A stretch of DNA of 61,663 bases, filler included. It is 6 parts of 6 records of this genome, joined end to end, with 100 filler letters (N's around TTAATTAATTAA, not from the genome) between each part and the next. Parts side by side here need not be neighbours in the genome. Positions count along the whole stretch, not along the records: positions 8,586 to 20,838 come from SRR20825010_5260; 5 more parts are not named here. The stretch is one strand, 5' to 3'. Position numbers and translations under genes: made by a program. Of the stretch, positions 8,486 through 53,974 are shown piece by piece (the stretch's first letter is position 1; each line of letters opens with the position of its first letter). Below the pieces are notes generated by a model, which saw nothing but the letters and a program-made list of their open reading frames with translations, searched no databases and was not told where the DNA came from.

Positions 8486-8585
8486 NNNNNNNNNNNNNNN
8501 NNNNNNNNNNNNNNNNNNNNNNNNNNNNNTTAATTAATTAANNNNNNNNNNNNNNNNNNNNNNNNNNNNNNNNNNNNNNNNNNNN
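8486..8585. other. Artificial contig spacer 1
   Basis: 44 N + TTAATTAATTAA (stops in all six frames) + 44 N; base composition changes across it. Confidence 0.98.
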
Positions 8586-8987: not shown

Positions 8988-9830
8988 TCATCGTTGTCTG
9001 CGGTAATCCGTTGGGGTAAGACCTTTAATTTCTTTAAATTTTCTATTGAAATTGGCAATGGTTCCAAAACCACATTGTTCGGATATCATGGCAATTGAAA
9101 GGTCGGGACTGCTTGTGATAAGTTTACAGGCATTTTCAATTCGTATTTCAATCAAAAATTGAAAAAATGTTTTGTTGGTTCGTTTTTTAAAATAGCGGCA
9201 AAATGAATTCTTGTTCATATGGGCCTTGTCCGCAATTTCTTCCAGAGTAATAGGTTCATAAAACTTTTCCATGGCATATTCAAACACATCGTTCATTCGT
9301 TTTCCCTCGTCGTCCGTATACCTTTTTTTGTAAACAAAAGAAGACAGGGGAGTGGATTCCGCTGTACTTATTAAATTTAGTATTTTCAAAAGTGTAGCTA
9401 CCCTTTCAATCTTATTTTGATGGCTTAACTTATTGAATTGTTTTGTGATTTTCTGTTTTTTGGATAGCACCTTCAGTCCGTATTCCGAACCTTTAAAAAA
9501 TTCCTTGGTTTCTGCCATATCCGTTAACTCGAAAAAATGTTTTCCAAATGAGTCCTTTTTAAAAAATAGGGAACACATGATAGATTCATCACTTTTGTCG
9601 GAATCACTTTTAAAGACATGGGGAAGATATTCACCTATTACCAAAATGTCTCCTTCCTGATATTCATTTATAGTGTCTGCCACAACAAAGGAGCCAGATC
9701 CCTTTACGACAAGGCTTATTTGTATTTCTTGATGTTGATGAAGTTGGCCATAGAATATTTTTTGGCGATCCTCTTGGTAGATGAGTGCTTCGTTTTTTGG
9801 TTTTGGTATTTTAAATGGCAGTACCTTCAA
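8988..9830 (-). CDS. AraC-family transcriptional regulator (cupin + HTH)
   Basis: LHQHQEIQI cupin motif and C-terminal SFCRYFKK...CGFGTIANFNRKFK...TPTDYR; TTG start. Confidence 0.92.
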   Translation of the reverse strand: MKVLPFKIPKPKNEALIYQEDRQKIFYGQLHQHQEIQISLVVKGSGSFVVADTINEYQEGDILVIGEYLPHVFKSDSDKSDESIMCSLFFKKDSFGKHFFELTDMAETKEFFKGSEYGLKVLSKKQKITKQFNKLSHQNKIERVATLLKILNLISTAESTPLSSFVYKKRYTDDEGKRMNDVFEYAMEKFYEPITLEEIADKAHMNKNSFCRYFKKRTNKTFFQFLIEIRIENACKLITSSPDLSIAMISEQCGFGTIANFNRKFKEIKGLTPTDYRRQR

Positions 9831-10263
9831 ATTGTGTTTTTTGCAAATATTATTTAAAAATATGATATTATGCGGTAATTGGGGTAATATAGTTTTATGA
9901 TGTGCTATTCTGGAAAAGACCTAATATATGTCACGATAGCTGCCTATAATTATTTGGATCTAGGCATTTGGACCGACATTTAAAATCAGATCTAATCTTG
10001 ACTCCAATATTTAATGGTTGTTATAACGTTTAGTTTATAGCTTTACCCTTTTTTGGATATCCCTAAAGTCTACAATTACGTATTTTCTTGGCGGCATTTC
10101 TATCAATGCAATAGTCTTATATCTCAACAAACCTGAATATCAAAATATATTAAGACGGGCCAATAGTCTATATTGACAGTAGCTTGCCAAAGATAGAGGG
10201 GGCATTTTAAAAAATGAAAGCTATATTTCTCCAGAACTGTCGATTGCCAAAAGTATTTGCAAT

Positions 10264-10635
10264 TTACATCTTCTTGATTTTCTTTACAATTTGCTCAAAA
10301 ATATGAAGTTCATCTTCCAATTTTGAACGGGTATTATATTTTTTCTTTAAGTCGTAGTCCGTTAAAATGATATGTTCATTGGGTTCAATGTCGATGTTCT
10401 TCAGACACTCTTTGGCACATTGGAGGGGGCATCCGTCAACCACAATTATGGGTCTATTGGACCTAGCCGTTTTGACCAGTGATTTTACTTTGCCACCTAC
10501 TCCAGCTATACACGACATTTCTGCAATACCATCAGAATTAATTTTTACGGCAATATCGTTTGCCAATTGTGCTACATTGCTACAGCCTGAACAAGAATAT
10601 ATTAGAGGTACCGTACTATGCTTATGTTTTTCCAT
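10264..10635 (-). CDS. DGC-domain putative metal-binding protein
   Basis: YSCSGCSN, EMSCIAG and VDGCPLQC motifs. Confidence 0.85.
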   Translation of the reverse strand: MEKHKHSTVPLIYSCSGCSNVAQLANDIAVKINSDGIAEMSCIAGVGGKVKSLVKTARSNRPIIVVDGCPLQCAKECLKNIDIEPNEHIILTDYDLKKKYNTRSKLEDELHIFEQIVKKIKKM

Positions 10636-10663
10636 TGTTGGAATTTAAAAATGTTTTTATGAA

Positions 10664-12253
10664 CTACAACCTAACCTTTAACCAACTTACCTTATCTGTT
10701 CTTACATTGTCTATATTGTAATAACCACCTTTATTATGTTTTTGTTCCAAGGATTGGCTAATTATAAGATGTGCTATATTTACCATATTTCTTAATTCAC
10801 AGAGGGTAGTGTTGATCTTTGCACTTTTGTAAAGTTCCTCGACCTCATTGTAAATTAAATCAAGATGCCGGGCAGCCTTCGTCAATCGACCGTTGCTACG
10901 CACAATTCCCACATAATCCCGCATTATGGCCTGCAACCGCTTTATATTGTGTTGAATTAGAATATATTCCTTGGGAATGCTTGTTCCTTCATAATTCCAA
11001 TCCGGAATATTCGTATAGTTCGGATTTGGCGGATTTGCAGTGTGGTATGCATAAATATTATGGGCGTAAACCAAAGCTTCCAATATGGAGTTGGATGCCA
11101 ATCTGTTGGCCCCATGTAATCCAGTTCTTGAACACTCACCACAGGCAAATAGGTTGGCAACCGAAGTTTGCCCGTTCTTGTCCACAACAATGCCACCACA
11201 TAGGTAATGTGAAGCTGGAACAACGGGAACCCAATCCTTTTCAACGTCGATATGATTAGATAAACATTCTTGATAAATATTTGGAAAATGATTTTTGAAG
11301 GCATTTATATCTAGGTGGGTGCAATCTAAAAAGACGTGGGTATCCCCTGATTTTTTCAACTCGGCGTCAATGCTTTGGGATACAATATCCCTCGAAGCCA
11401 ATTCAGCTCTATTATCATATATCGGCATAAACCTCTGTCCGTTTTTATCCCGTAAAATGGCACCAAAGCCCCTGACCGCTTCGGAAATCAGAAATGAGCG
11501 CCCATCTTTATTGTTATAAAGGGCGGTAGGATGAAATTGTACAAATTCCATATCCTTAATTTCTGCTTTTGCCCTATAAGCCATGGCTATGCCGTCTCCC
11601 GTTGCGATTGTTGGGTTCGTGGTATTGCCATATACGCGACCAATACCGCCCGTTGCCAATAAAGTAGTATCCGCTTTAATCGTAATTATATCTTCTTTCT
11701 TTTGATTCAGTACATAAGCGCCATAGCATGTTATATTTTTTGATTTCGTAATATTAAGGTGATGTTGCGTAATCAGGTCCAATGCAAAATGATGGGGCAA
11801 AACGGTAACATTCGACAGTTTATGAACTTGTTGCAATAATACGCGCTCTACTTCGAAACCGGTAATATCCTTATGGTGCACAACACGGTATTCTGAATGT
11901 CCACCTTCCAGTCCTAAATCCAGTTTGCCAGATTCATCAACATCAAAACTGGCACCCCAATGCATTAATTCCTTAAGCCGTTGTGGACCTTCCTTTATGA
12001 CCATTTCGACTACAGCCTCATCACACAAGCCGTCTCCGGCAACCAGGGTATCCTGTATGTGTTTCTTAAAAGAATCTTCCACTAAATCCAACACTACGGC
12101 AACTCCGCCCTGGGCATATTTGGTGTTGGACTCATGCTCATCCGCCTTGGTGACTATAATAACTGTCTTATTGGGAAATCTCTGGGCAATTTTTACGGCG
12201 TAAGTCAATCCTGCAACCCCGGAACCTATAATAAGATAATTTGTATATAACAT
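10664..12253 (-). CDS. nadB: L-aspartate oxidase
   Basis: IIGSGVAG, NTKYAQGG, EGGHS, QFHPT, LISEAVRG, ASRDIV, HYLCGG and GLHGANRLASNS. Start at MLYTNYL, 1 nt after the nadA stop. Confidence 0.96.
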   Translation of the reverse strand: MLYTNYLIIGSGVAGLTYAVKIAQRFPNKTVIIVTKADEHESNTKYAQGGVAVVLDLVEDSFKKHIQDTLVAGDGLCDEAVVEMVIKEGPQRLKELMHWGASFDVDESGKLDLGLEGGHSEYRVVHHKDITGFEVERVLLQQVHKLSNVTVLPHHFALDLITQHHLNITKSKNITCYGAYVLNQKKEDIITIKADTTLLATGGIGRVYGNTTNPTIATGDGIAMAYRAKAEIKDMEFVQFHPTALYNNKDGRSFLISEAVRGFGAILRDKNGQRFMPIYDNRAELASRDIVSQSIDAELKKSGDTHVFLDCTHLDINAFKNHFPNIYQECLSNHIDVEKDWVPVVPASHYLCGGIVVDKNGQTSVANLFACGECSRTGLHGANRLASNSILEALVYAHNIYAYHTANPPNPNYTNIPDWNYEGTSIPKEYILIQHNIKRLQAIMRDYVGIVRSNGRLTKAARHLDLIYNEVEELYKSAKINTTLCELRNMVNIAHLIISQSLEQKHNKGGYYNIDNVRTDKVSWLKVRL

Positions 12254-12254
12254 A

Positions 12255-13181
12255 TTAGTTCGATAATTCCAACATTCTTTGAATAGGCTGTAGTGCACGT
12301 AGCCTTATGTTATTTTGAACCTCTATTTGTGGTGTTTCATTTAAAAGACAATCATAAATTTTTTGAAGGGTATTTACTTTCATATAGGCACATTCACTAC
12401 AGGCACATGTATTTTCTTCCTCGGCAGGGGCCGGAATTAGAACTGTGGTGGGCACTTCTAGTTGCATTTTGTGCAATATACCTGCTTCCGTGGCAACAAT
12501 AAACTGTTCCTTGGAATGGGTTTTTACATAATTGATCATACCGGCAGTGGAGCCAATGTAGGTGGCAAGATCCAAGATGTGCTCTTCTGATTCGGGATGG
12601 GCTATTATTTTTGATTCGGGATAGGTCTTGTATAGTGCCAATAATTTATCTACGGAGAAGGCTTCGTGTACTACACAGGAACCATCCCATAGCAATAAAT
12701 CCCGTCCCGTTTTTTTACTTATGTAGCGACCCAAATTTTTGTCGGGCGCAAAAATAATCGGTCTGTCCTTAGGTACCGACTCAACTATTTTTAGGGCATT
12801 TGAGGAGGTACATACTATGTCGCTCATTGCTTTAATTTCCGACGAACAATTAATATAGGTAATAACCAAATGCTCGGGGTGTGCTTTTATGAATTTTGCA
12901 AATGCCTCTGGCGGACAGGAATCTGCCAACGAACAACCAGCATTTAAGTCGGGCAGCAGCACTTTTTTCGTCGGATTTAGGATTTTTGCCGTTTCTGCCA
13001 TAAAATGTACCCCGGCAAATACAATAATGGATGCATCGGTTTCAGCGGCCATTTGTGAAAGCCCCAAACTATCGCCAACGTAATCTGCGATTTCCTGTAT
13101 TTCATCGCGCTGGTAGTAATGCGCGAGAATTACGGCATTCTTTTCGTGCCTCAACTTGTTGATTCTCTCTTTTAAATCCAT
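12255..13181 (-). CDS. nadA: Quinolinate synthase
   Basis: [40 protein letters not shown] and CAYMK. Confidence 0.97.
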
Positions 13182-13186
13182 AAGAT

Positions 13187-13249
13187 CAAAGGTATTTTTG
13201 AATCGGAAAAGTTATGGGTTCCGCTAACTTTAAAAAATGATAAATGTCA
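13187..13249 (-). promoter_or_regulatory. nadA promoter: Bacteroidetes -7 element plus Crp/Fnr-like box
   Basis: Minus-strand TACCTTTG at 13187-13194 matches TAnnTTTG; TGATAAATGTCA at 13238-13249. Confidence 0.6.
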
Positions 13250-13250
13250 T

Positions 13251-13278
13251 GATAAAAAGATAAAAATATCTTTTTATC
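13251..13278. promoter_or_regulatory. Perfect inverted repeat, candidate repressor operator (Rrf2-like)
   Basis: GATAAAAAGATA-AAAA-TATCTTTTTATC (12-bp arms), next to the Fnr-like box upstream of nadA. Confidence 0.5.
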
Positions 13279-13471
13279 GTCTAATAGGTGCGGACTGAAA
13301 TTGTGGCCGGCTTTTGCCTAGTCCTAAAATGATACCGAAAGCTAGGTTTGAAGAATTTTGTTCCGGAATTATGCACCGCTGTATGCTTCGGAGGAATTCG
13401 ATGTCAATATTTTTTATTTTATATAAAAGTCTAGAGGCCTAATAGCTAGATTACCTTTTCATAGTGGGCAA

Positions 13472-14707
13472 TTAGGAACCGGAAGAATTTTTGTTTTTGT
13501 ATCTCAACTCTCCCAACTCAATACCTATTGCGGTTTTAGCAAGGATAGTGAATACAAATGCTCCCAATGCCCAAATTCCGATTGTAACCCCTATTTCTAT
13601 TTTAGTGGGTAGGTATTCTACTATTTTACCGTAAGGTCCTGGAATAAACCCAGGGACTATTAAGCCAAATCCTTTCTCGATCCATATGGCCACAAAGAGG
13701 ATAAAACAGCAGAAGTACAATACTTTTAGATTATTTCTAAATTTACCAAAGGTTAGGATTACAGTGGCCAAAATATTTAAAGGTATTGCGGTCCATATCC
13801 ATGGAAGCAAGGCGTTCTTGCCGTGTAATCCAAAGAATAGATAATAAGCACTTTCGCTATGATGGGTGGGTGCGTAGAATTCCTTGAACAATTCTGAGAC
13901 TAGCATTATTAAATTTATTTGAGCTGCTACGGTCACGATCATTGCAATTTTTTTGATGGTTTTATCTTCTATTTTAAACGCAGTAAAAGATCGGATAACG
14001 GCCAAGACCAAAATTATCAATGCCGGTCCAGCTGCAAAGGCCGATGCTAAGAAGCGAGGACCTAGCAGTGCATTATTCCAAAATGGTCGCGCTTGTAAAC
14101 CTTGGTATAGAAAAGCGGTCACAAGGTGAATGCCAACGGCCCAGAAAACAGACAAAACAGCCCCTGGGACGTATACTTTTTGCTTGGCTTCCTTACCTTG
14201 ATAATGTCTAAAGAGTATATAAAAGGGAATACTAATATTTATAAAAAGATACCCGTTTAAAACTATGACGTCCCATGTCAACATCGAATTGGGAAAATTA
14301 AAAACTCCTATTCCAGGAATCATATGCCAAAGTACAGATGGCCCGCCCATATCGGCCACCACAAAGGCCAAACACATTATTAAGGCAGCTACGGCCAATC
14401 CTTCGCCAATTAGGACGGCCTGTTTAAAGTCTATATCCTTAAGAACATAAGTTGGCATTACCAGCATAACCGCGGCTGCGGCAACTCCTACTAAAAAGGT
14501 GAAATTTGAAATATAAAGTCCCCAACTTACCCGGTCGGACATTCCTGTAACACTGAGTCCCTCATCCAATTGAATGGAATAGCAATACATGCCTATGAGC
14601 ATCACCAAGGTCAGAAATCCCATCCAAATATGATACTTCATAGATCCTTTGGTAATGGTATCCAGACTATCGATTACTAAACTCTTTAATACTTTTAGTT
14701 GTCCCAT
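13472..14707 (-). CDS. NrfD/PsrC-family integral membrane quinol-interacting subunit, DsrP-like
   Basis: TGMSDRVSWGLYISNFTFLVGVAAAAV, VVADMGGP, FPNSMLTWD and GPRFLASAF; about 10 TM helices. Confidence 0.88.
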   Translation of the reverse strand: MGQLKVLKSLVIDSLDTITKGSMKYHIWMGFLTLVMLIGMYCYSIQLDEGLSVTGMSDRVSWGLYISNFTFLVGVAAAAVMLVMPTYVLKDIDFKQAVLIGEGLAVAALIMCLAFVVADMGGPSVLWHMIPGIGVFNFPNSMLTWDVIVLNGYLFINISIPFYILFRHYQGKEAKQKVYVPGAVLSVFWAVGIHLVTAFLYQGLQARPFWNNALLGPRFLASAFAAGPALIILVLAVIRSFTAFKIEDKTIKKIAMIVTVAAQINLIMLVSELFKEFYAPTHHSESAYYLFFGLHGKNALLPWIWTAIPLNILATVILTFGKFRNNLKVLYFCCFILFVAIWIEKGFGLIVPGFIPGPYGKIVEYLPTKIEIGVTIGIWALGAFVFTILAKTAIGIELGELRYKNKNSSGS

Positions 14708-14804
14708 TATATATTATATATTGATTTGAAAATCAATCTCAGAGGCCGTAATCATTATACTCAGCGTTCTGTTTACAATTTTCCTATTGCTACCCTTTTG
14801 GTGG

Positions 14805-15926
14805 TTAATCCATAAAGTACCAGAACTTGGGTTCTGTTCCTAAATCTTCCTTCAGCCTAAAGACTTTTTTGTTTTCCAATACCCATCTGATGGTACTGTT
14901 AGGGTCTAAGAGGTTGCCAAAAATTCTTGCTCCCGTTGGGCAAGCTTCAGCACAGGCCGGATTCTTTCCTTTCCTAGTACGTTGCACACAAAAAGTGCAC
15001 TTTTCCATTACTCCTTTTTTACGCATTCTATTCCCTAGATAGTGCTGATTTTTATTAATTTCATTTTCTGGAACTTCAGGTTTGCTCCAGTTAAACCTTC
15101 TGCCGTCATAAGGACAGGCGGCCATGCAATAGCGGCACCCTACACACCAATCATAATCTATGACTACCAGACCATCTTCTTCTTTCCAAGTAGCTTGCAC
15201 AGGGCATACTTCCACACAAGGTGGATTGTCGCAATGAAAGCATTGGGTACCCATATAAAAATGACCTTCTGCAGGAACTTCGTGATAGTAATTGTCATCT
15301 GCCTTATCAAACTTAAATCCTTCCCCATCTTTCATTTCGTGGATACGGATGTACTGCATTTGTGAATTTCTATCTTGATTGTTCTCCTCCACGCAGGCAG
15401 TTACACAGTTCATATACCCCTGACATTTCGAAATATTAAAAGCATATCCAAAGAGAACGTCTTCTGCGGCATTTTCTGCCGTCATACTAATATTCTTGCC
15501 GGTACGTAATTCATACGATCGCATAAGTCTATTAATTGTACTTTGCTTCTCGTTATCGGTCATTAGCTTATAGTTTCCCTTAAACTGTTCTTCCCAATCA
15601 ATTTGTGCTTTTTCTTTAGTTTCATCGTCAACTATAACACTACAAGAGGTGCTAACTGCTCCGGCTCCTATAAGTAGGCTAGCTGTTAATTTTCTAAAGG
15701 CAGTCCTTCTGTCCATCTTTACATCAAAAACCTGCTCAAAACCATCTCTATGTCTTTCCTCGCCTATTGAAGCATTGATGGCAGCCTCATAAAATTCATC
15801 GGCGCTGAGTTCTTCTTTCTGGCTATTGCAACTACCTTGGGCCTTACCACATCCACAAGATCCGGAAGACTCTTTTTTCTTATTTGAACCTAGATCCAGG
15901 GAATACCATTTTTTACTAACACTCAT
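14805..15926 (-). CDS. Four-cluster ferredoxin-type Fe-S protein, NrfC/DsrO-like, with an internal twin-arginine motif
   Basis: CQGYMNCVTAC, CFHCDNPPCVEVCP, CVGCRYCMAACP and KCTFC...PACAEACP; MDRRTAF followed by a hydrophobic stretch. Confidence 0.9.
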   Translation of the reverse strand: MSVSKKWYSLDLGSNKKKESSGSCGCGKAQGSCNSQKEELSADEFYEAAINASIGEERHRDGFEQVFDVKMDRRTAFRKLTASLLIGAGAVSTSCSVIVDDETKEKAQIDWEEQFKGNYKLMTDNEKQSTINRLMRSYELRTGKNISMTAENAAEDVLFGYAFNISKCQGYMNCVTACVEENNQDRNSQMQYIRIHEMKDGEGFKFDKADDNYYHEVPAEGHFYMGTQCFHCDNPPCVEVCPVQATWKEEDGLVVIDYDWCVGCRYCMAACPYDGRRFNWSKPEVPENEINKNQHYLGNRMRKKGVMEKCTFCVQRTRKGKNPACAEACPTGARIFGNLLDPNSTIRWVLENKKVFRLKEDLGTEPKFWYFMD

Positions 15927-15936
15927 ACCTTTGTTT

Positions 15937-16566
15937 TTAATGATCTAAACCTTCTTTTCGTTCTTCCAATGTTTGGGTATTAAATTGTACCGGCCACCTT
16001 TTTTCAAAACCGGGACTGTGCGGATTATGACAATTTACGCAGGTCATTGAAGCTCGTGGCGGTGCCCATCCAGCAACTTTTTTACCGTGGGCACCTCCTT
16101 TCCAATCTTCGAACTGACTAAAGTGGCATTGTGCACAAAGTTTATAGCTAAGGTTGAAATCTATGTTTTGGCCAGTTAGGGCATTTAGATTGTTCATATC
16201 ATTTCCGTTATGGCAGGTAGCACAATTCATTACCTCACTATTTGCGTGATTCAATTTAATGTCCCAGTGGGCTTTTTGAGCATCGGAGTTCTTCATTTGT
16301 GCAACAGGTCTTGTATGACACTCCGTACATGCAAATGATTTTATTTGTCCTTTTCTTTCCGGTATCAGGAATGTATGTTCTCCTTCGGTAATTGTAATTA
16401 ATTCAGAATCGACCAATAATGGGTCTGAGCTAAGCTTTCCGTGGTAAGGTTTGCCCTCTGCTTCAATCTTATCTGAAATGGAATGATATTCCCCTTCTTC
16501 TTTGCAAGAGTAGAACCCCAGAATGAATAGGACTATAAAATAATATGTAAGGGTTTTATTCTTCAT
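15937..16566 (-). CDS. Tetraheme cytochrome c, predicted lipoprotein
   Basis: Four CXXCH motifs (CTECH, CATCH, CAQCH, CVNCH); signal peptide ends in the lipobox-like GFYS-C. Confidence 0.85.
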   Translation of the reverse strand: MKNKTLTYYFIVLFILGFYSCKEEGEYHSISDKIEAEGKPYHGKLSSDPLLVDSELITITEGEHTFLIPERKGQIKSFACTECHTRPVAQMKNSDAQKAHWDIKLNHANSEVMNCATCHNGNDMNNLNALTGQNIDFNLSYKLCAQCHFSQFEDWKGGAHGKKVAGWAPPRASMTCVNCHNPHSPGFEKRWPVQFNTQTLEERKEGLDH

Positions 16567-17272
16567 ATGAACTATTAAATTGTCTTAGGAAGGTGCTGGC
16601 ATCCATTTGGAGTTTCTCATTTTTTATGGGTAAATGGCATTGTCTACAATTAATGCGCTCCGGATGTGAGACTCTAATTTCTTTAGGAGCGCTTGGTCCG
16701 GAATGACAGGAAATGCAGTTTTCCCTCATCTGTAATTGGTGGGGGATCATAGGAGGACTTCCCGGCATGGCGTTATTTGCACCAACCCCTACTTTTGGAG
16801 GTTGTACTTTGGCGAAAGCAAATTCCTTAAACGTGTTATTGGAGTTTATGGCAACATGGCATTGCCGACAATTTATCATCTCAGGATGCGGGGTTACAGG
16901 GGCGTATGCATTGAATTTTTCTACAAATCCGCCATTCTGGTGACATTGCAAGCAGGTGTTACCTCCCAAGCTTCGATCCTTCGCTACCGGATGTGGAATA
17001 CTTGGTGGAGCTCCGGGATAAGCCCTGTTGTCATAGTAACTTTCAAGTGTACGTTGATGGTTCTGGTCTATTGGCATATTTGAGTAATCCATGCCTTTAT
17101 TGTCGAACCTCTTAAAAACATTACTTTCCGAAGGAATAAAATTTCCAGTGGGAGTATCAATAGTAGGGATGTCTGCTTCTTCCAATCCTTCTTGGTAACT
17201 ATAGTTCCAAGTGATTATAAACGCTATGAAGATGATTACAAAAAATGATATGATTCCCAGTCTCTTTTTCAT
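16556..17272 (-). CDS. Membrane-anchored tetraheme cytochrome c made of two NapB-like diheme units
   Basis: N-terminal TM helix; the unit PP(S/M)IPH...CXXCH...HPE(M/R)INCRQCH occurs twice; directly downstream of napA. Confidence 0.8.
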   Translation of the reverse strand: MKKRLGIISFFVIIFIAFIITWNYSYQEGLEEADIPTIDTPTGNFIPSESNVFKRFDNKGMDYSNMPIDQNHQRTLESYYDNRAYPGAPPSIPHPVAKDRSLGGNTCLQCHQNGGFVEKFNAYAPVTPHPEMINCRQCHVAINSNNTFKEFAFAKVQPPKVGVGANNAMPGSPPMIPHQLQMRENCISCHSGPSAPKEIRVSHPERINCRQCHLPIKNEKLQMDASTFLRQFNSSYEE

Positions 17273-17275
17273 ATT

Positions 17276-19603
17276 TTATGCTTTTTCAACTTTAACAGCG
17301 CATTTCTTGTAATCAGGTTCTTTGGAAATGGGACAGAAAGCATCAAGAGTCACATCGTTAATAAGCATATTTTCGTCAAAGAACGGAACAAATACCTGTC
17401 CTTTGGTGGGCAGTCCTCTTTCGTTAATAGAAGCGGGTAATTTACAAGAGCCCCTACGGGAGGTTATTTTGATATTTTCGCCATTTCTTATGCCTAATGA
17501 CTTGGCATCATCCGGATGAAACTCCACATAGGCATGGGGCATGGCTTGATGTAATACGGGGATTCTGCGGGTCATGGAACCGGTATGCCAGTGTTCAATT
17601 ACACGTCCTGTATTCAACCAGAAGGGATATTCTTGATCTGGTTTTTCCGGAGCTTCTTCAAAAGGTCGTTGCCATATCACAGCTTTTCCATCTGGTTTTC
17701 CATAAAAATGAAAGTCTTTGCCATTGGAACAGGCAGGATCATATTTCGCGTTAAATCGCCATTGGGTCGATTTTCCGTTTACATAGGGCCAAATGGCGCC
17801 AGATTCTTTTTTCAGAACTTCCAATGGTGCCATACCGTGTTTGGCACCTTCATGGAACTGTCTGTATTCGTTGTATATTTCCTCTACGTGATTTTCTTTA
17901 CTATATGGAAACAGATTTCCATATCCCATTCGTTTTGCTACTTCGATAAACATCCAGGCATCTGCTGTAGACTCACCAGGACCTTCCACCATTTTGTCCC
18001 AATGTTGGGTTCTTCTTTCAGAGTTGCCATAAAGTCCACTTTTCTCGATATGCCAGGACGCAGGAAGAATAACATCTGCGACATCCGAGGTAGGCGTTGG
18101 AAACACATCTGAAACAACAATAAAACAAGAATCCTTTTCCATTCCTGGTCTGTAACGGCTCGTTTTTGGTAGTGAAACCAACGGATTAGTGGCTTGGATC
18201 CATATAAACTTGATATCCCCTCTGTCTACGGCCCTAAACATTTCAGTTGCGTGATAGGTGGGTTTGGGTGGAATATTTTCAACAGGGACCTTCCAAATTC
18301 TTGCAGCCATTTCCCTATCTTCCTTATTGGTTACAACACCGTGAGGTAATTTATGGGTAAAAGTGCCCACCTCGCGGGCAGTACCACAAGCGGAAGGTTG
18401 CCCAGTTAGGGAAAATGGGCCATTCCCCGGTTGGGAAATTTTTCCTGTTAGTAAATGTATATTGTATACTAAATTATTTATCCAAGTTCCGCGCGTATGT
18501 TGATTCATTCCCATACACCAATAGGAAACTACCTTTTTATTTGGATCACCATAAATAGAGGCTAAATATTTAATGTCCTTCACGGAGACTTTAGAATATT
18601 TTGAAACCTTTTCCGGACTGTAATCTTTCAGAAACTCCTTATAGGCATCAAAGTCTATTTTTTCTGGCTTATCCGTAAATTCATAATGGTCTTCCAGGCC
18701 GTATCCCATATTGGTGAGCCCTTTGCTAAAACTACAGTGATTTTCAACAAAGGATTTGTTTACCCAGCCATTCTTGATAATCTCATAACAAATGGCATTG
18801 GCAACTGCTAGATCGGTTTGGGGCTCAAATAGAATGGACTTGTCCGATGCCGTACTGGAGCGTGTTGTTCTTGTGGCAAAATCAATAATTTTGGCACCGC
18901 GTTGTGATTTCTGCTCCAGCATTCTCGAGAATAATACAGGGTGCATTTCGGCCATATTATTACCCCAAGTTACAAAGTAATCTGCATGATCAATATCTTC
19001 ATAGCAACCCATTGGTTCATCTGCACCAAAGCTGGTCAGGAAGCCTGTTACGGCACTTGCCATACATAGGCGCGCATTGCAATCCAGATTATTGGTGCCT
19101 ATGGCTCCTTTCATTAGTTTTGAAGCTATATAACCTTCTGGAATTGTGGATTGTCCGGAGGTGTACATAGCGACCGAATCCTTACCATGCTTTTCAATAG
19201 TTCCTTTCATTTTAGAAGCCACAAGGTCCAAAGCCTCGTTGATAGGGGTCTGAACATACTTGCCATTTTTCTTGACCAACGCATGTGTAAGTCTATCCTT
19301 GGATTGTATGCACATAATCTGGTGATACCCCTTTACACAAAGTAATCCTTTATTGACCGATGAGTTGGGATCTCCTTTTACTGCAACAGCCCTTCCGTTT
19401 TCAGTGCCCACAAGTATTCCGCATCCCACGCCACAGAATCTACAAGGGCCTTTTTTCCAATCCAGGTTGGCACCTTCAGGAATTCCTTTTTCCTGTTCAC
19501 TTGCAAATATAATTCCGGGAAACATGGATGCAGCGGCGGTCATGGCTGATAACATGGCCATTTTCTTAATAAAATTTCTTCTATTTGTTGCAGACTTGTA
19601 CAT
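17276..19603 (-). CDS. napA: Periplasmic nitrate reductase catalytic subunit
   Basis: Tat signal TNRRNFIKK; CRFCGVGC...LCVKGY; NARLCMASA (Mo-ligating Cys); SLTGQPSACGTAREVG; TGRVIEHWHTGSMTRR; CPISKEPDYKKCAV. Confidence 0.93.
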   Translation of the reverse strand: MYKSATNRRNFIKKMAMLSAMTAAASMFPGIIFASEQEKGIPEGANLDWKKGPCRFCGVGCGILVGTENGRAVAVKGDPNSSVNKGLLCVKGYHQIMCIQSKDRLTHALVKKNGKYVQTPINEALDLVASKMKGTIEKHGKDSVAMYTSGQSTIPEGYIASKLMKGAIGTNNLDCNARLCMASAVTGFLTSFGADEPMGCYEDIDHADYFVTWGNNMAEMHPVLFSRMLEQKSQRGAKIIDFATRTTRSSTASDKSILFEPQTDLAVANAICYEIIKNGWVNKSFVENHCSFSKGLTNMGYGLEDHYEFTDKPEKIDFDAYKEFLKDYSPEKVSKYSKVSVKDIKYLASIYGDPNKKVVSYWCMGMNQHTRGTWINNLVYNIHLLTGKISQPGNGPFSLTGQPSACGTAREVGTFTHKLPHGVVTNKEDREMAARIWKVPVENIPPKPTYHATEMFRAVDRGDIKFIWIQATNPLVSLPKTSRYRPGMEKDSCFIVVSDVFPTPTSDVADVILPASWHIEKSGLYGNSERRTQHWDKMVEGPGESTADAWMFIEVAKRMGYGNLFPYSKENHVEEIYNEYRQFHEGAKHGMAPLEVLKKESGAIWPYVNGKSTQWRFNAKYDPACSNGKDFHFYGKPDGKAVIWQRPFEEAPEKPDQEYPFWLNTGRVIEHWHTGSMTRRIPVLHQAMPHAYVEFHPDDAKSLGIRNGENIKITSRRGSCKLPASINERGLPTKGQVFVPFFDENMLINDVTLDAFCPISKEPDYKKCAVKVEKA

Positions 19604-19610
19604 AGTTATA

Positions 19611-19847
19611 TTAATTAGGCGGTGTATTAAAACCGGAGACTAGGGATAACATTTTGAGACTGTCTATGGCTTCAATTTTTTCTTTAAGAATTTCTTCCTC
19701 CATTTCGTTGGTCGTTTCGGTTACCAAGGCAAGGACATCTTGATTCTGGGCCGGGACGACCTCACATTGATGAAGACTTCTCAATGCCTTTATCAACTCT
19801 TCTTTTTTTCCCGTGATGGGAAGTGCTAGGTAACTTTTAATCGGCAT
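19611..19847 (-). CDS. napD: Small NapD-like chaperone
   Basis: 78 aa with a ferredoxin-like beta/alpha pattern, immediately upstream of napA. The call rests mainly on position and size. Confidence 0.6.
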   Translation of the reverse strand: MPIKSYLALPITGKKEELIKALRSLHQCEVVPAQNQDVLALVTETTNEMEEEILKEKIEAIDSLKMLSLVSGFNTPPN

Positions 19848-19886
19848 TGAAATGAATTATTAATAATTTGAATACGTCTTCTTTGG

Positions 19887-19949
19887 CAAATTCACTATTA
19901 ATTTAGCAAAATTCAGAAAACATTATTAATATAAAGGTGATAAAAATCA
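19887..19949 (-). promoter_or_regulatory. nap promoter: near-consensus Bacteroidetes -7 element plus Crp/Fnr-like box
   Basis: Minus-strand TGAATTTG at 19887-19894 and TGATAAAAATCA (TGAT-N4-ATCA) at 19938-19949; same spacing as at nadA. Confidence 0.6.
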
Positions 19950-20204
19950 TCAATGATGTAAAATGAAGTAGTTTTCCGATAGTATATTGTGCTGATGGGT
20001 TTAGCTGAAATTAAATGAAAAACAAAAGGATTTATCTATTTTAGAGAAAAAGGTGTGTTGTTAAATATGCTCTAAATAAGTTTTATAAAATAATTTCAAT
20101 GGCAGAATACTATATGTGAAGTGGCAATGTCCAAAACAATTCGCTTTTGGAAGGCCTACTTCAAAATTTACCTGCACATTATAGGGTCTAGAAAAGTATA
20201 AAGC

Positions 20205-20654
20205 TCATATCCCTGGATTCCATCCAATAGCAATTGCAACTTGTTTTTTATCTTTAATCACGGACCTTATTATATAGGGCCGGTCATTACCGACATTTTC
20301 TAGAGTGGTATCCATAGGTTCGCCGTCTATAAGGACAGTTCCTGTGAAGTTGCTTTTTGGTTGGTGACCTAGTCCGTATCGGTTGTCTTCTACAAGGATG
20401 AGCATTAACATCTTTTCTGGATCGGCAGATGAGCAGAAAATGCCCAATTCATCCCAAAGATATACGCTGTTTTTGGTTTGCTTAACAGGTTCGATACGTG
20501 TGGCATCACCCAAAATGTTTTTTATGATATTGTAGCTAGTTGGAAAACTAATGGATGAATTATTTATCCTTATCGCTTTAGGGTCACACTCAATAATGAC
20601 AGAACCTGTCTTATTTTTTCTTTTGCTTGGATCTCTAAAGTCGAATATTCCCAT
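20205..20654 (-). CDS. Hypothetical protein
   Basis: About 150-aa ORF in AT-rich DNA (ATG 20654, alternative TTG 20663); no motif recognised. Confidence 0.65.
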   Translation of the reverse strand: MGIFDFRDPSKRKNKTGSVIIECDPKAIRINNSSISFPTSYNIIKNILGDATRIEPVKQTKNSVYLWDELGIFCSSADPEKMLMLILVEDNRYGLGHQPKSNFTGTVLIDGEPMDTTLENVGNDRPYIIRSVIKDKKQVAIAIGWNPGI

Positions 20655-20838: not shown

Positions 20839-20938
20839 NNNNNNNNNNNNNNNNNNNNNNNNNNNNNNNNNNNNNNNNNNNNTTAATTAATTAANNNNNN
20901 NNNNNNNNNNNNNNNNNNNNNNNNNNNNNNNNNNNNNN
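20839..20938. other. Artificial contig spacer 2
   Basis: 44 N + TTAATTAATTAA + 44 N. Confidence 0.98.
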
Positions 20939-25764: not shown

Positions 25765-25864
25765 NNNNNNNNNNNNNNNNNNNNNNNNNNNNNNNNNNNN
25801 NNNNNNNNTTAATTAATTAANNNNNNNNNNNNNNNNNNNNNNNNNNNNNNNNNNNNNNNNNNNN
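25765..25864. other. Artificial contig spacer 3
   Basis: 44 N + TTAATTAATTAA + 44 N. Confidence 0.98.
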
Positions 25865-50596: not shown

Positions 50597-50696
50597 NNNN
50601 NNNNNNNNNNNNNNNNNNNNNNNNNNNNNNNNNNNNNNNNTTAATTAATTAANNNNNNNNNNNNNNNNNNNNNNNNNNNNNNNNNNNNNNNNNNNN
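50597..50696. other. Artificial contig spacer 4
   Basis: 44 N + TTAATTAATTAA + 44 N. Confidence 0.98.
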
Positions 50697-53874: not shown

Positions 53875-53974
53875 NNNNNNNNNNNNNNNNNNNNNNNNNN
53901 NNNNNNNNNNNNNNNNNNTTAATTAATTAANNNNNNNNNNNNNNNNNNNNNNNNNNNNNNNNNNNNNNNNNNNN
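53875..53974. other. Artificial contig spacer 5
   Basis: 44 N + TTAATTAATTAA + 44 N. Confidence 0.98.

Follow-up and report, generated by a model that had tools for sequence, protein, structure and literature searches.

How does a periplasmic nitrate reductase draw electrons from the quinone pool when the genes for its usual quinol dehydrogenases are missing from its operon? In the canonical Nap systems of, for example, E. coli, Paracoccus, and Wolinella, NapAB is served by either NapC or NapGH. The question is raised by a six-gene cluster on the minus strand (19847-13472) of a 61,663-nucleotide stretch of DNA, hereafter the window, in which napA is present and none of napC, napG, napH, and napF is found on the same contig. 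A preliminary description, made from the letters of the window only, had reported six packed, co-oriented genes; open reading frames (ORFs) were recovered exactly where it had placed them, and our profile searches bore out the identities that it had given them. In the order napD to dsrP-like, the genes encode a NapD-like chaperone, NapA, a membrane-anchored tetraheme cytochrome (gene cytB), a lipoprotein tetraheme cytochrome (cytL), a DsrO/NrfC-like iron-sulfur (Fe-S) protein, and a DsrP-like membrane subunit of the NrfD family, with intergenic spacings of 7, 3, -11 (an overlap), 10, and 97 nt. We consider it probable that the NapC/NapGH quinol dehydrogenase of this nap operon has been replaced by a module made of the DsrP-like subunit, the DsrO-like protein, and the lipoprotein tetraheme.

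The catalytic subunit, NapA (775 amino acids [aa]; 17276..19603), passed the NCBIfam equivalog model NF010055 (947.1 bits; cut-off, 904), scored slightly below the cut-off of TIGR01706 (911.8 bits; cut-off, 930.55), and matched the Pfam domains Molybdop_Fe4S4 (E 8.5e-16), Molybdopterin, and Molydop_binding; its closest solved relative was E. coli NapA (2NYA; 780 bits). Residues 7-14 form the twin-arginine translocation (Tat) motif NRRNFIKK, and the DsrO-like protein bears an invariant twin-arginine pair at residues 73-74, so both proteins are predicted to be periplasmic. The napD-like gene (78 aa; 19611..19847) ends 7 nt upstream of napA and was tentatively assigned from the Pfam NapD matches of its orthologues, its fold, and its position. 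By itself, the protein matched Pfam NapD weakly (16.4 bits versus 28; E 0.0097), and the same profile was matched by 15 of 15 orthologues at E values of 0.01 or lower (best, 2.8e-6). Its AlphaFold2 (AF2) model displayed a ferredoxin-like fold with a predicted local distance difference test (pLDDT) score of 91, and a fold search with this model returned E. coli NapD (2PQ4) at rank 7 with a template modeling score of 0.76, among many generic folds, a result that is compatible with NapD but generic.

The two cytochromes differ in kind. The 238-aa protein encoded immediately behind napA (16556..17272) contains CxxCH motifs at residues 107, 135, 186, and 209 and a single N-terminal hydrophobic helix (residues 5-23), and its two diheme halves, each with a PGxPPxIPH motif preceding the CxxCH pair, were 38% identical to each other (E 1e-11). 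All four CxxCH motifs and both PGxPPxIPH halves were invariant in 14 of 14 aligned rows. The first half matched the NapB profile (PF03892; 39.8 bits; cut-off, 25.1), and a profile of the protein matched the solved NapB chains 3ML1_B, 1OGY_B, and 1JNI. Because of the NapB-profile match, the resemblance of the halves, and the hydrophobic helix, this cytochrome is, judged by its sequence, a tandem-duplicated and anchored NapB. The second cytochrome (209 aa; 15937..16566) matched the Pfam families Paired_CXXCH_1 and Cytochrome c3/c7, and its four CxxCH motifs (residues 80, 115, 144, and 176) were likewise invariant in 14 of 14 rows; the cysteine of its lipobox-like GFYSC sequence was retained in 11 of 14 aligned orthologues. 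In the ESM Atlas, only generic c3/c7 clusters were retrieved for this protein, most commonly from Bacteroidota, Myxococcota, Methylomirabilota, and Planctomycetota, which serves as a lead on its range and not as evidence.

The Fe-S protein (373 aa; 14805..15926) matched Pfam Fer4_11 and came close to the NCBIfam DsrO model (195.2 bits; cut-off, 200), with lower scores relative to the models for NrfC (124 bits; cut-off, 378) and QrcC (151.6 bits; cut-off, 400, not passed); its solved relatives were ArrB, PsrB, and ActB, and the Pfam scan detected no Molybdopterin domain in it. It differs from DsrO by inserts and by its cysteines, of which 15 are invariant as opposed to 16 in DsrO. The difference lies in motif I (residues 168-178; 15390-15430 region), which reads C-x5-C-x3-C in 14 of 14 Nap-linked rows and has four cysteines in true DsrO; since this motif is one cysteine short, one of the clusters may be of the 3Fe-4S type or have a non-cysteine ligand. 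The first ~70 residues (15717-15926), which precede the twin-arginine motif, form an N-terminal extension. A cysteine-rich GSCGCGK..GSC patch within this extension was kept in Flavobacteriaceae and was also present in two of the metagenome loci described below (L129 and L143); the extension may bind a metal, or the true start may lie further on.

The membrane subunit (411 aa; 13472..14707) has ten hydropathy peaks, corresponding to ten predicted helices, and no CxxCH motif. It matched Pfam NrfD (PF03916; 117.1 bits; cut-off, 25.8), passed the NCBIfam DsrP equivalog (423.2 bits; cut-off, 350), and did not pass QrcD (38.7 bits; cut-off, 570). Its closest solved structure was ActC, at an E value of 4e-10 with only 42 bits, and none was close. 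A lysine in the sequence WI(E/D)K (here WIEK, with the lysine at residue 345) is common to this protein and true DsrP, the corresponding residue being arginine in ActC and other NrfD proteins; this position is discussed as a possible proton gate in excerpts of Calisto & Pereira (2021).

We gathered 80 loci from Flavobacteriaceae genomes, starting from the DsrP-like protein. Both cytochromes and the dsrO-like and dsrP-like genes were present in 80 of 80, napA in 78, and napD in 77, with constant order, and the complete set of six genes in order was found in 77. Two of the incomplete loci were cut by contig ends (L024, with napD missing, and L034), and the third (L046) lacked napD and napA. Of 301 sampled Flavobacteriaceae genomes, 48 had NapA (47 over the cut-off) and 47 had the DsrP-like protein; in all 47, the latter lay on the contig of NapA at a distance of 3-5 kb, and the 48th NapA was truncated by a contig end. 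The NrfD-family and Fe-S genes are thus conserved together with napA. A second set of 80 loci was retrieved from metagenomes with an aligned set of the most divergent full-length representatives as the query, and 35 of these had at least 4.9 kb upstream. The order napA-cytB-cytL-dsrO-dsrP was observed in 31 of these 35, and 21 of the 31 were non-flavobacterial, with DsrP-like proteins only 51-71% identical to that of the window and guanine-plus-cytosine (GC) contents of 0.38-0.69. The arrangement, which had been presented as one of Flavobacteriaceae, is therefore common in that family and not limited to it. A further high-GC metagenome contig (L127:1974-11197) held a 32nd complete nap set, behind which stood another dsrO/dsrP-like pair. 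In the phylum of genome G001, a genome related to another contig of the window (see below), a search of 401 genomes returned DsrP-like proteins of 36-47% identity at best, with no NapA in the top four loci, and the Nap-linked clade was not found among those searched.

The usual donors were also sought elsewhere in the genomes of relatives that carry the cluster. Five carriers were scanned (Arenibacter, Tamlana, Aquimarina, Zobellia, and Cellulophaga), along with 44 further ones. NapH reached its cut-off in none of the five, where the best score was 66 bits versus 213, in 530-aa proteins, and it was detected in none of the 44 at E values of 1e-22 or lower, a genuine NapH of another Bacteroidota genome scoring 1e-34 with the same model. 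NapG, NapF, and NarG were found in none of the five. Full-length proteins of the NapC/NirT family over the cut-off were encoded in one of the five and 19 of the 44 (20 of 49), always 250-300 nt from an NrfA gene; because every one adjoins nrfA, we regard these genes as nrfH. No member of the family was found in 28 of the 49 carriers, and one more had a 102-aa remnant. The preliminary description had named a napC or napGH elsewhere, required for nitrate reduction, as one way in which its proposal could fail; among these carriers, NapH was absent and the NapC family was represented only by nrfH, which leaves NrfH as a possible route in two fifths of them. A canonical Nap operon is one with napC, or with napG and napH, in the operon or the genome, and by this test the cluster is not canonical. 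In some Flavobacteriaceae, nrfH-nrfA was located directly beside the nap cluster (G827:C6:189849-193332; G987:C32:22747-34961; G1007:C1:1141366-1142994), a neighborhood that is possibly a nitrate-to-ammonium supercluster, and G1007 retained only a 102-aa NrfH-like remnant. Other Bacteroidota harbored divergent NapA-like genes (610-670 bits, under the NapA cut-off) accompanied by NapG and NapH (L208) or by a 314-aa NrfH-like protein (L211), or standing alone; another locus (L209) resembled L208 as judged by its ORF layout. Given the NapG+NapH, NrfH-like, and DsrOP-like variants, the phylum has at least three Nap wirings.

These results fit a route in which menaquinol would be oxidized at the heme-free, ten-helix DsrP-like subunit, and the four Fe-S clusters of the Tat-exported DsrO-like ferredoxin would serve as a wire carrying electrons to the lipoprotein tetraheme, from which they would go on to the membrane-anchored double-NapB tetraheme and finally to NapA, where nitrate would be reduced to nitrite on the periplasmic side; maturation and escort of NapA would fall to NapD. 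The lipoprotein tetraheme is placed next to the Fe-S subunit because cytL stays with the dsrO/dsrP-like genes in NapA-less loci that lack the NapB-like cytochrome (L189, L190, L193-L196, and L223-L226), and the NapB-like tetraheme is placed next to NapA because it matches solved NapB, which binds NapA. Flavobacteriaceae use menaquinone-6 (MK-6) as their quinone. A route from menaquinol through the DsrP-like and DsrO-like proteins and eight hemes to NapA had already been proposed in the preliminary description; the gene identities, the conserved order, and the absent donors speak for it, and it is refined here in that the first tetraheme is read as a tandem NapB. We infer from the genes the direction of the electrons, the order of the cytochromes, the existence of a physical complex, and the quinone used.

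Several observations weigh against this reading. The AF2 model of the lipoprotein tetraheme was unusable (pLDDT, 45), and the cofactor content of the DsrO-like protein is uncertain, as it scored just under the DsrO cut-off and is short of one cysteine in motif I. The NrfH found in 20 of the 49 carriers is a possible extra feed to Nap, and an ActC-like gene, indicative of alternative complex III, was present in all carriers examined for it (G002 and G003), making a route via soluble cytochrome c possible. In one locus (L189), the cytL-dsrO-dsrP trio stood beside an arsenite-oxidase-like enzyme, from which electrons would run to the quinone, so the direction of the module is not set by the sequence. 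Expression of the six genes as a unit is a further weak point. Across two studies, four RNA libraries yielded contigs that covered all six genes at 95-99% identity, and the cytL/dsrO and napD/napA junctions were each bridged by one such contig, which is compatible with expression as a unit and only weakly indicative of it; these contigs cannot establish a single transcript, and DNA carry-over is possible. The flanks (13000-13487 and 19832-20300) had no RNA-contig cover in the four runs and were not used to set transcript ends. A scan for promoters and terminators was uninformative, with 22 and 8 sites versus 21.6 and 7.1 expected, and Bacteroidota promoters fall outside its models.

The alternative that survives best sees in the module an oxidoreductase of general use, working between quinol and cytochrome c (or from cytochrome c to quinone) for several periplasmic enzymes, with Nap as only one client that is also fed by alternative complex III, soluble cytochromes, or NrfH. 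The loci in which the trio occurs without NapA favor it. In L189 (786-9297) and L190, the trio was followed by two MauG-like diheme peroxidases, a Rieske protein, and an AioA-like molybdoenzyme, and the module could be in quinone-reducing use there. In L193-L196 and L223-L226, the latter from the phylum of G001, the trio was accompanied by neither NapA, NapB-like cytochrome, nor DsrMKJ, its partners being class-I cytochromes c (as in L193) or a c554-like multiheme cytochrome (as in L224). In the family itself, the locus of Haloflavibacter putidus (L046:7453-11248) kept both tetraheme cytochromes and the dsrO/dsrP-like genes without napD and napA in the locus; divergent moeB-, moaE-, moaC/B-, and moaA-like genes, related to molybdenum cofactor synthesis, lay upstream. 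The ActC-like genes of the carriers point the same way. Against these observations stands the near-absolute link to NapA within the Nap-linked clade, seen in 47 of 47 sampled genomes of the family and in 31 of the 35 metagenome loci with enough upstream sequence, as well as the phylogeny of the membrane subunit. In an IQ-TREE analysis of 66 rows, the bootstrap of which was not fully settled, the 16 Nap-linked rows formed one clade (100/100), apart from the Aio- and cytochrome-linked subunits; its nearest neighbors (100/98) were the subunits from L189 and L193 and unlabelled representatives. Owing to this near-absolute link and the separate clade, we favor a variant dedicated to Nap and regard the general module as unlikely.

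The same phylogeny bears on the possibility that the dsrO/dsrP-like genes are part of a sulfur-metabolizing DsrMKJOP complex and mere neighbors of nap. The membrane subunit passes the DsrP equivalog and shares the WI(E/D)K lysine with true DsrP, and public records call its orthologues 'sulfate reduction electron transfer complex DsrMKJOP subunit DsrP'. However, the tree placed the dsrMKJOP subunits in a separate clade of 18 rows (100/100), with 12 unlabelled representatives, and the true DsrP of such operons was only 27-47% identical to the DsrP-like protein. DsrM, DsrK, and DsrJ, which are present in true DsrP loci, were found in 0 of the 80 metagenome loci, the 80 flavobacterial loci not having been probed for them; in the latter, the dsrO/dsrP-like genes follow directly behind napA and the two cytochromes. 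The DsrO score below its cut-off and the co-occurrence with NapA in the Flavobacteriaceae sample (47 of 47) also speak against a sulfur role, which we consider highly improbable. The closest relatives outside Flavobacteriaceae in a phylum-wide sample were 40-47% identical, came from small genomes, and lay within dsrMKJOP operons. Because it forms a clade of its own, apart from that of dsrMKJOP, the membrane subunit is, in phylogenetic terms, DsrP-like and not DsrP. The label of a DsrOP/NrfCD-like module given earlier is hence appropriate as far as the profiles of both subunits are concerned, as long as it is not taken to mean true DsrP, and the public naming of these proteins as DsrO and DsrP of sulfate reduction is misleading. 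A chance juxtaposition or an assembly artifact, suggested by the unrelated contigs that are concatenated in the window, has a negligible probability and was rejected, as all six genes lie inside one N-free contig and the identical gene order recurs in isolate genomes, complete chromosomes among them (L053 and L086), and in 77 of the 80 flavobacterial loci.

Whether the module conserves energy is a separate matter. It is speculation, which we hold to be possible yet doubtful, that menaquinol oxidation by the DsrP-like/DsrO-like/tetraheme module conserves energy through a redox loop or proton translocation. The driving force is ample, with midpoint potentials of about -70 mV for menaquinone and about +420 mV for nitrate/nitrite. 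A simple redox loop would yield nothing, because quinol oxidation and nitrate reduction both face the periplasm; for energy to be gained, the DsrP-like subunit would have to take up protons from the membrane or pump them across it. To our knowledge, Qrc alone provides an experimental case in which an NrfD-family protein couples quinone chemistry to ion movement; the preliminary description had spoken of such coupling in several complexes. If the module did conserve energy, Nap-dependent nitrate reduction would generate proton motive force directly, both in Flavobacteriaceae and in several other phyla, and a third, bioenergetically distinct Nap class would exist besides the NapC and NapGH types.

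Comparison with known systems places the cluster between several of them. It shares with canonical Nap a NapA over the equivalog cut-off that is closest to the E. coli enzyme, an upstream napD-like gene, a NapB-type diheme domain, and a periplasmic, Tat-dependent location; it differs in the absence of NapC, NapG, NapH, and NapF, in the tandem duplication and anchoring of NapB, and in the donor slot, which is filled by an NrfCD-type pair together with an additional lipoprotein tetraheme. The E. coli NrfABCD system follows the same logic: its terminal reductase, in the periplasm, is fed through a heme-free NrfD-family subunit that interacts with quinol, an NrfC-type ferredoxin with four clusters, and a multiheme cytochrome as relay. 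This NrfD-NrfC-NrfB-NrfA architecture appears in excerpts of Calisto & Pereira (2021). In the present cluster, unlike NrfABCD, the terminal enzyme is the molybdoenzyme NapA, the membrane subunit is DsrP-like with 10 helices as opposed to the 8 of NrfD, two tetraheme cytochromes take the place of one pentaheme, and the NrfC score remains far from its cut-off. The DsrJOP half of DsrMKJOP, known from sulfate reducers and sulfur oxidizers, is the closest named family for both subunits and resembles the module in its 10 helices, its WI(E/D)K lysine, and the periplasmic c-type cytochrome that partners the Fe-S subunit; the module departs from it in lacking DsrM, DsrK, and DsrJ, in its separate clade, in its partner NapA, and in a DsrO-like protein with inserts, an N-terminal extension, and 15 cysteines versus 16.

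Alternative complex III (ActABCDEF) follows the same quinol:cytochrome c type of wire, from an NrfD-family subunit through Fe-S clusters to a membrane-attached multiheme cytochrome, and it provides the nearest solved structures, ActC and ActB. The present cluster differs in having no molybdopterin-like B1 domain, no ActD, ActE, or ActF, and no further membrane genes. ActB has lost a cysteine in motif III and has a 3Fe-4S cluster near the membrane, according to excerpts of Sousa (2018), whereas the loss in the DsrO-like protein is in motif I. Qrc of Desulfovibrio (QrcABCD) also joins a multiheme lipoprotein-type cytochrome to an NrfCD-type module; it reduces quinone, however, and the cluster has no QrcB-like subunit and low scores with QrcD (38.7 versus 570) and QrcC (152 versus 400).

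The preliminary description had known of no biochemical account of this arrangement in Flavobacteriaceae, and we found none either. Neither full-text searches nor excerpts of PMC5317091, PMC10732223, PMC8076601, PMC10949509, PMC4911364, PMC4584990, PMC11896075, and PMC3475470 described a Nap that is joined to an NrfD/DsrP-type module, although an earlier figure of the gene order in reviews of Nap diversity is possible; the string 'nap' has no occurrence in the NrfD-family review by Calisto & Pereira (2021). The parts and logic are familiar, and the combination, its breadth, and the separate membrane-subunit clade appear to be undescribed. The cluster would represent a third way of connecting periplasmic nitrate reductase with the quinone pool, besides NapC and NapGH. 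Among the Nap-carrying marine Flavobacteriaceae sampled, it is the rule (47 of 48), distant lineages have it as well, and nitrate-reduction models for these abundant degraders of algal polymers should adopt the DsrOP-like wiring. With the large gap between menaquinol and nitrate, and NrfD-family proteins being candidates for ion translocation, these genetically tractable aerobes suit the testing of quinol-oxidizing energy conservation. Since the DsrP-like protein passes its NCBIfam model and the DsrO-like one almost reaches the cut-off of its own, and since public records give them the names of sulfate-reduction subunits, metagenome surveys that count dsrO or dsrP will take flavobacterial nap operons for sulfur-cycle genes.

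The window as a whole (1-61663) consists of six contigs joined by N44-TTAATTAATTAA-N44 linkers (8486-8585, 20839-20938, 25765-25864, 50597-50696, and 53875-53974), with GC contents of 0.57, 0.39, 0.52, 0.56, 0.63, and 0.55 from first to sixth. The nap cluster lies wholly within the second contig (8586-20838; 12,253 bases). The large, high-GC fourth contig matched genome G001 at 98%, and in that genome we found no match to the nap contig and no NrfD-family gene. Because of this absence and the contrast in GC content, the nap contig most likely comes from an organism other than that of the high-GC contigs, having been co-assembled or mis-binned with them. The best match of the DsrP-like protein, at 98% identity, was a protein of Arenibacter sp. 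F20364, with 87-95% identity to those of Cellulophaga, Maribacter, Zobellia, Winogradskyella, Aquimarina, and Tenacibaculum. The earlier assignment to a flavobacterium consequently holds for the nap contig, whose proteins have their nearest matches in Flavobacteriaceae, and not for the window with its mixed contigs, of which only the second is flavobacterial.

The nap cluster is preceded by 357 AT-rich nt and followed, after 290 nt, by nadA. The remaining ORFs of the contig encode an AraC-type regulator, a DGC-domain protein, NadB, NadA, and a DUF7738 protein, the first four of these being the downstream neighbors at 8988-13181. In the related Flavobacteriaceae loci, nadA recurred in only 8 of 80 and nadB in only 12 of 80, which places both genes outside the nap unit.

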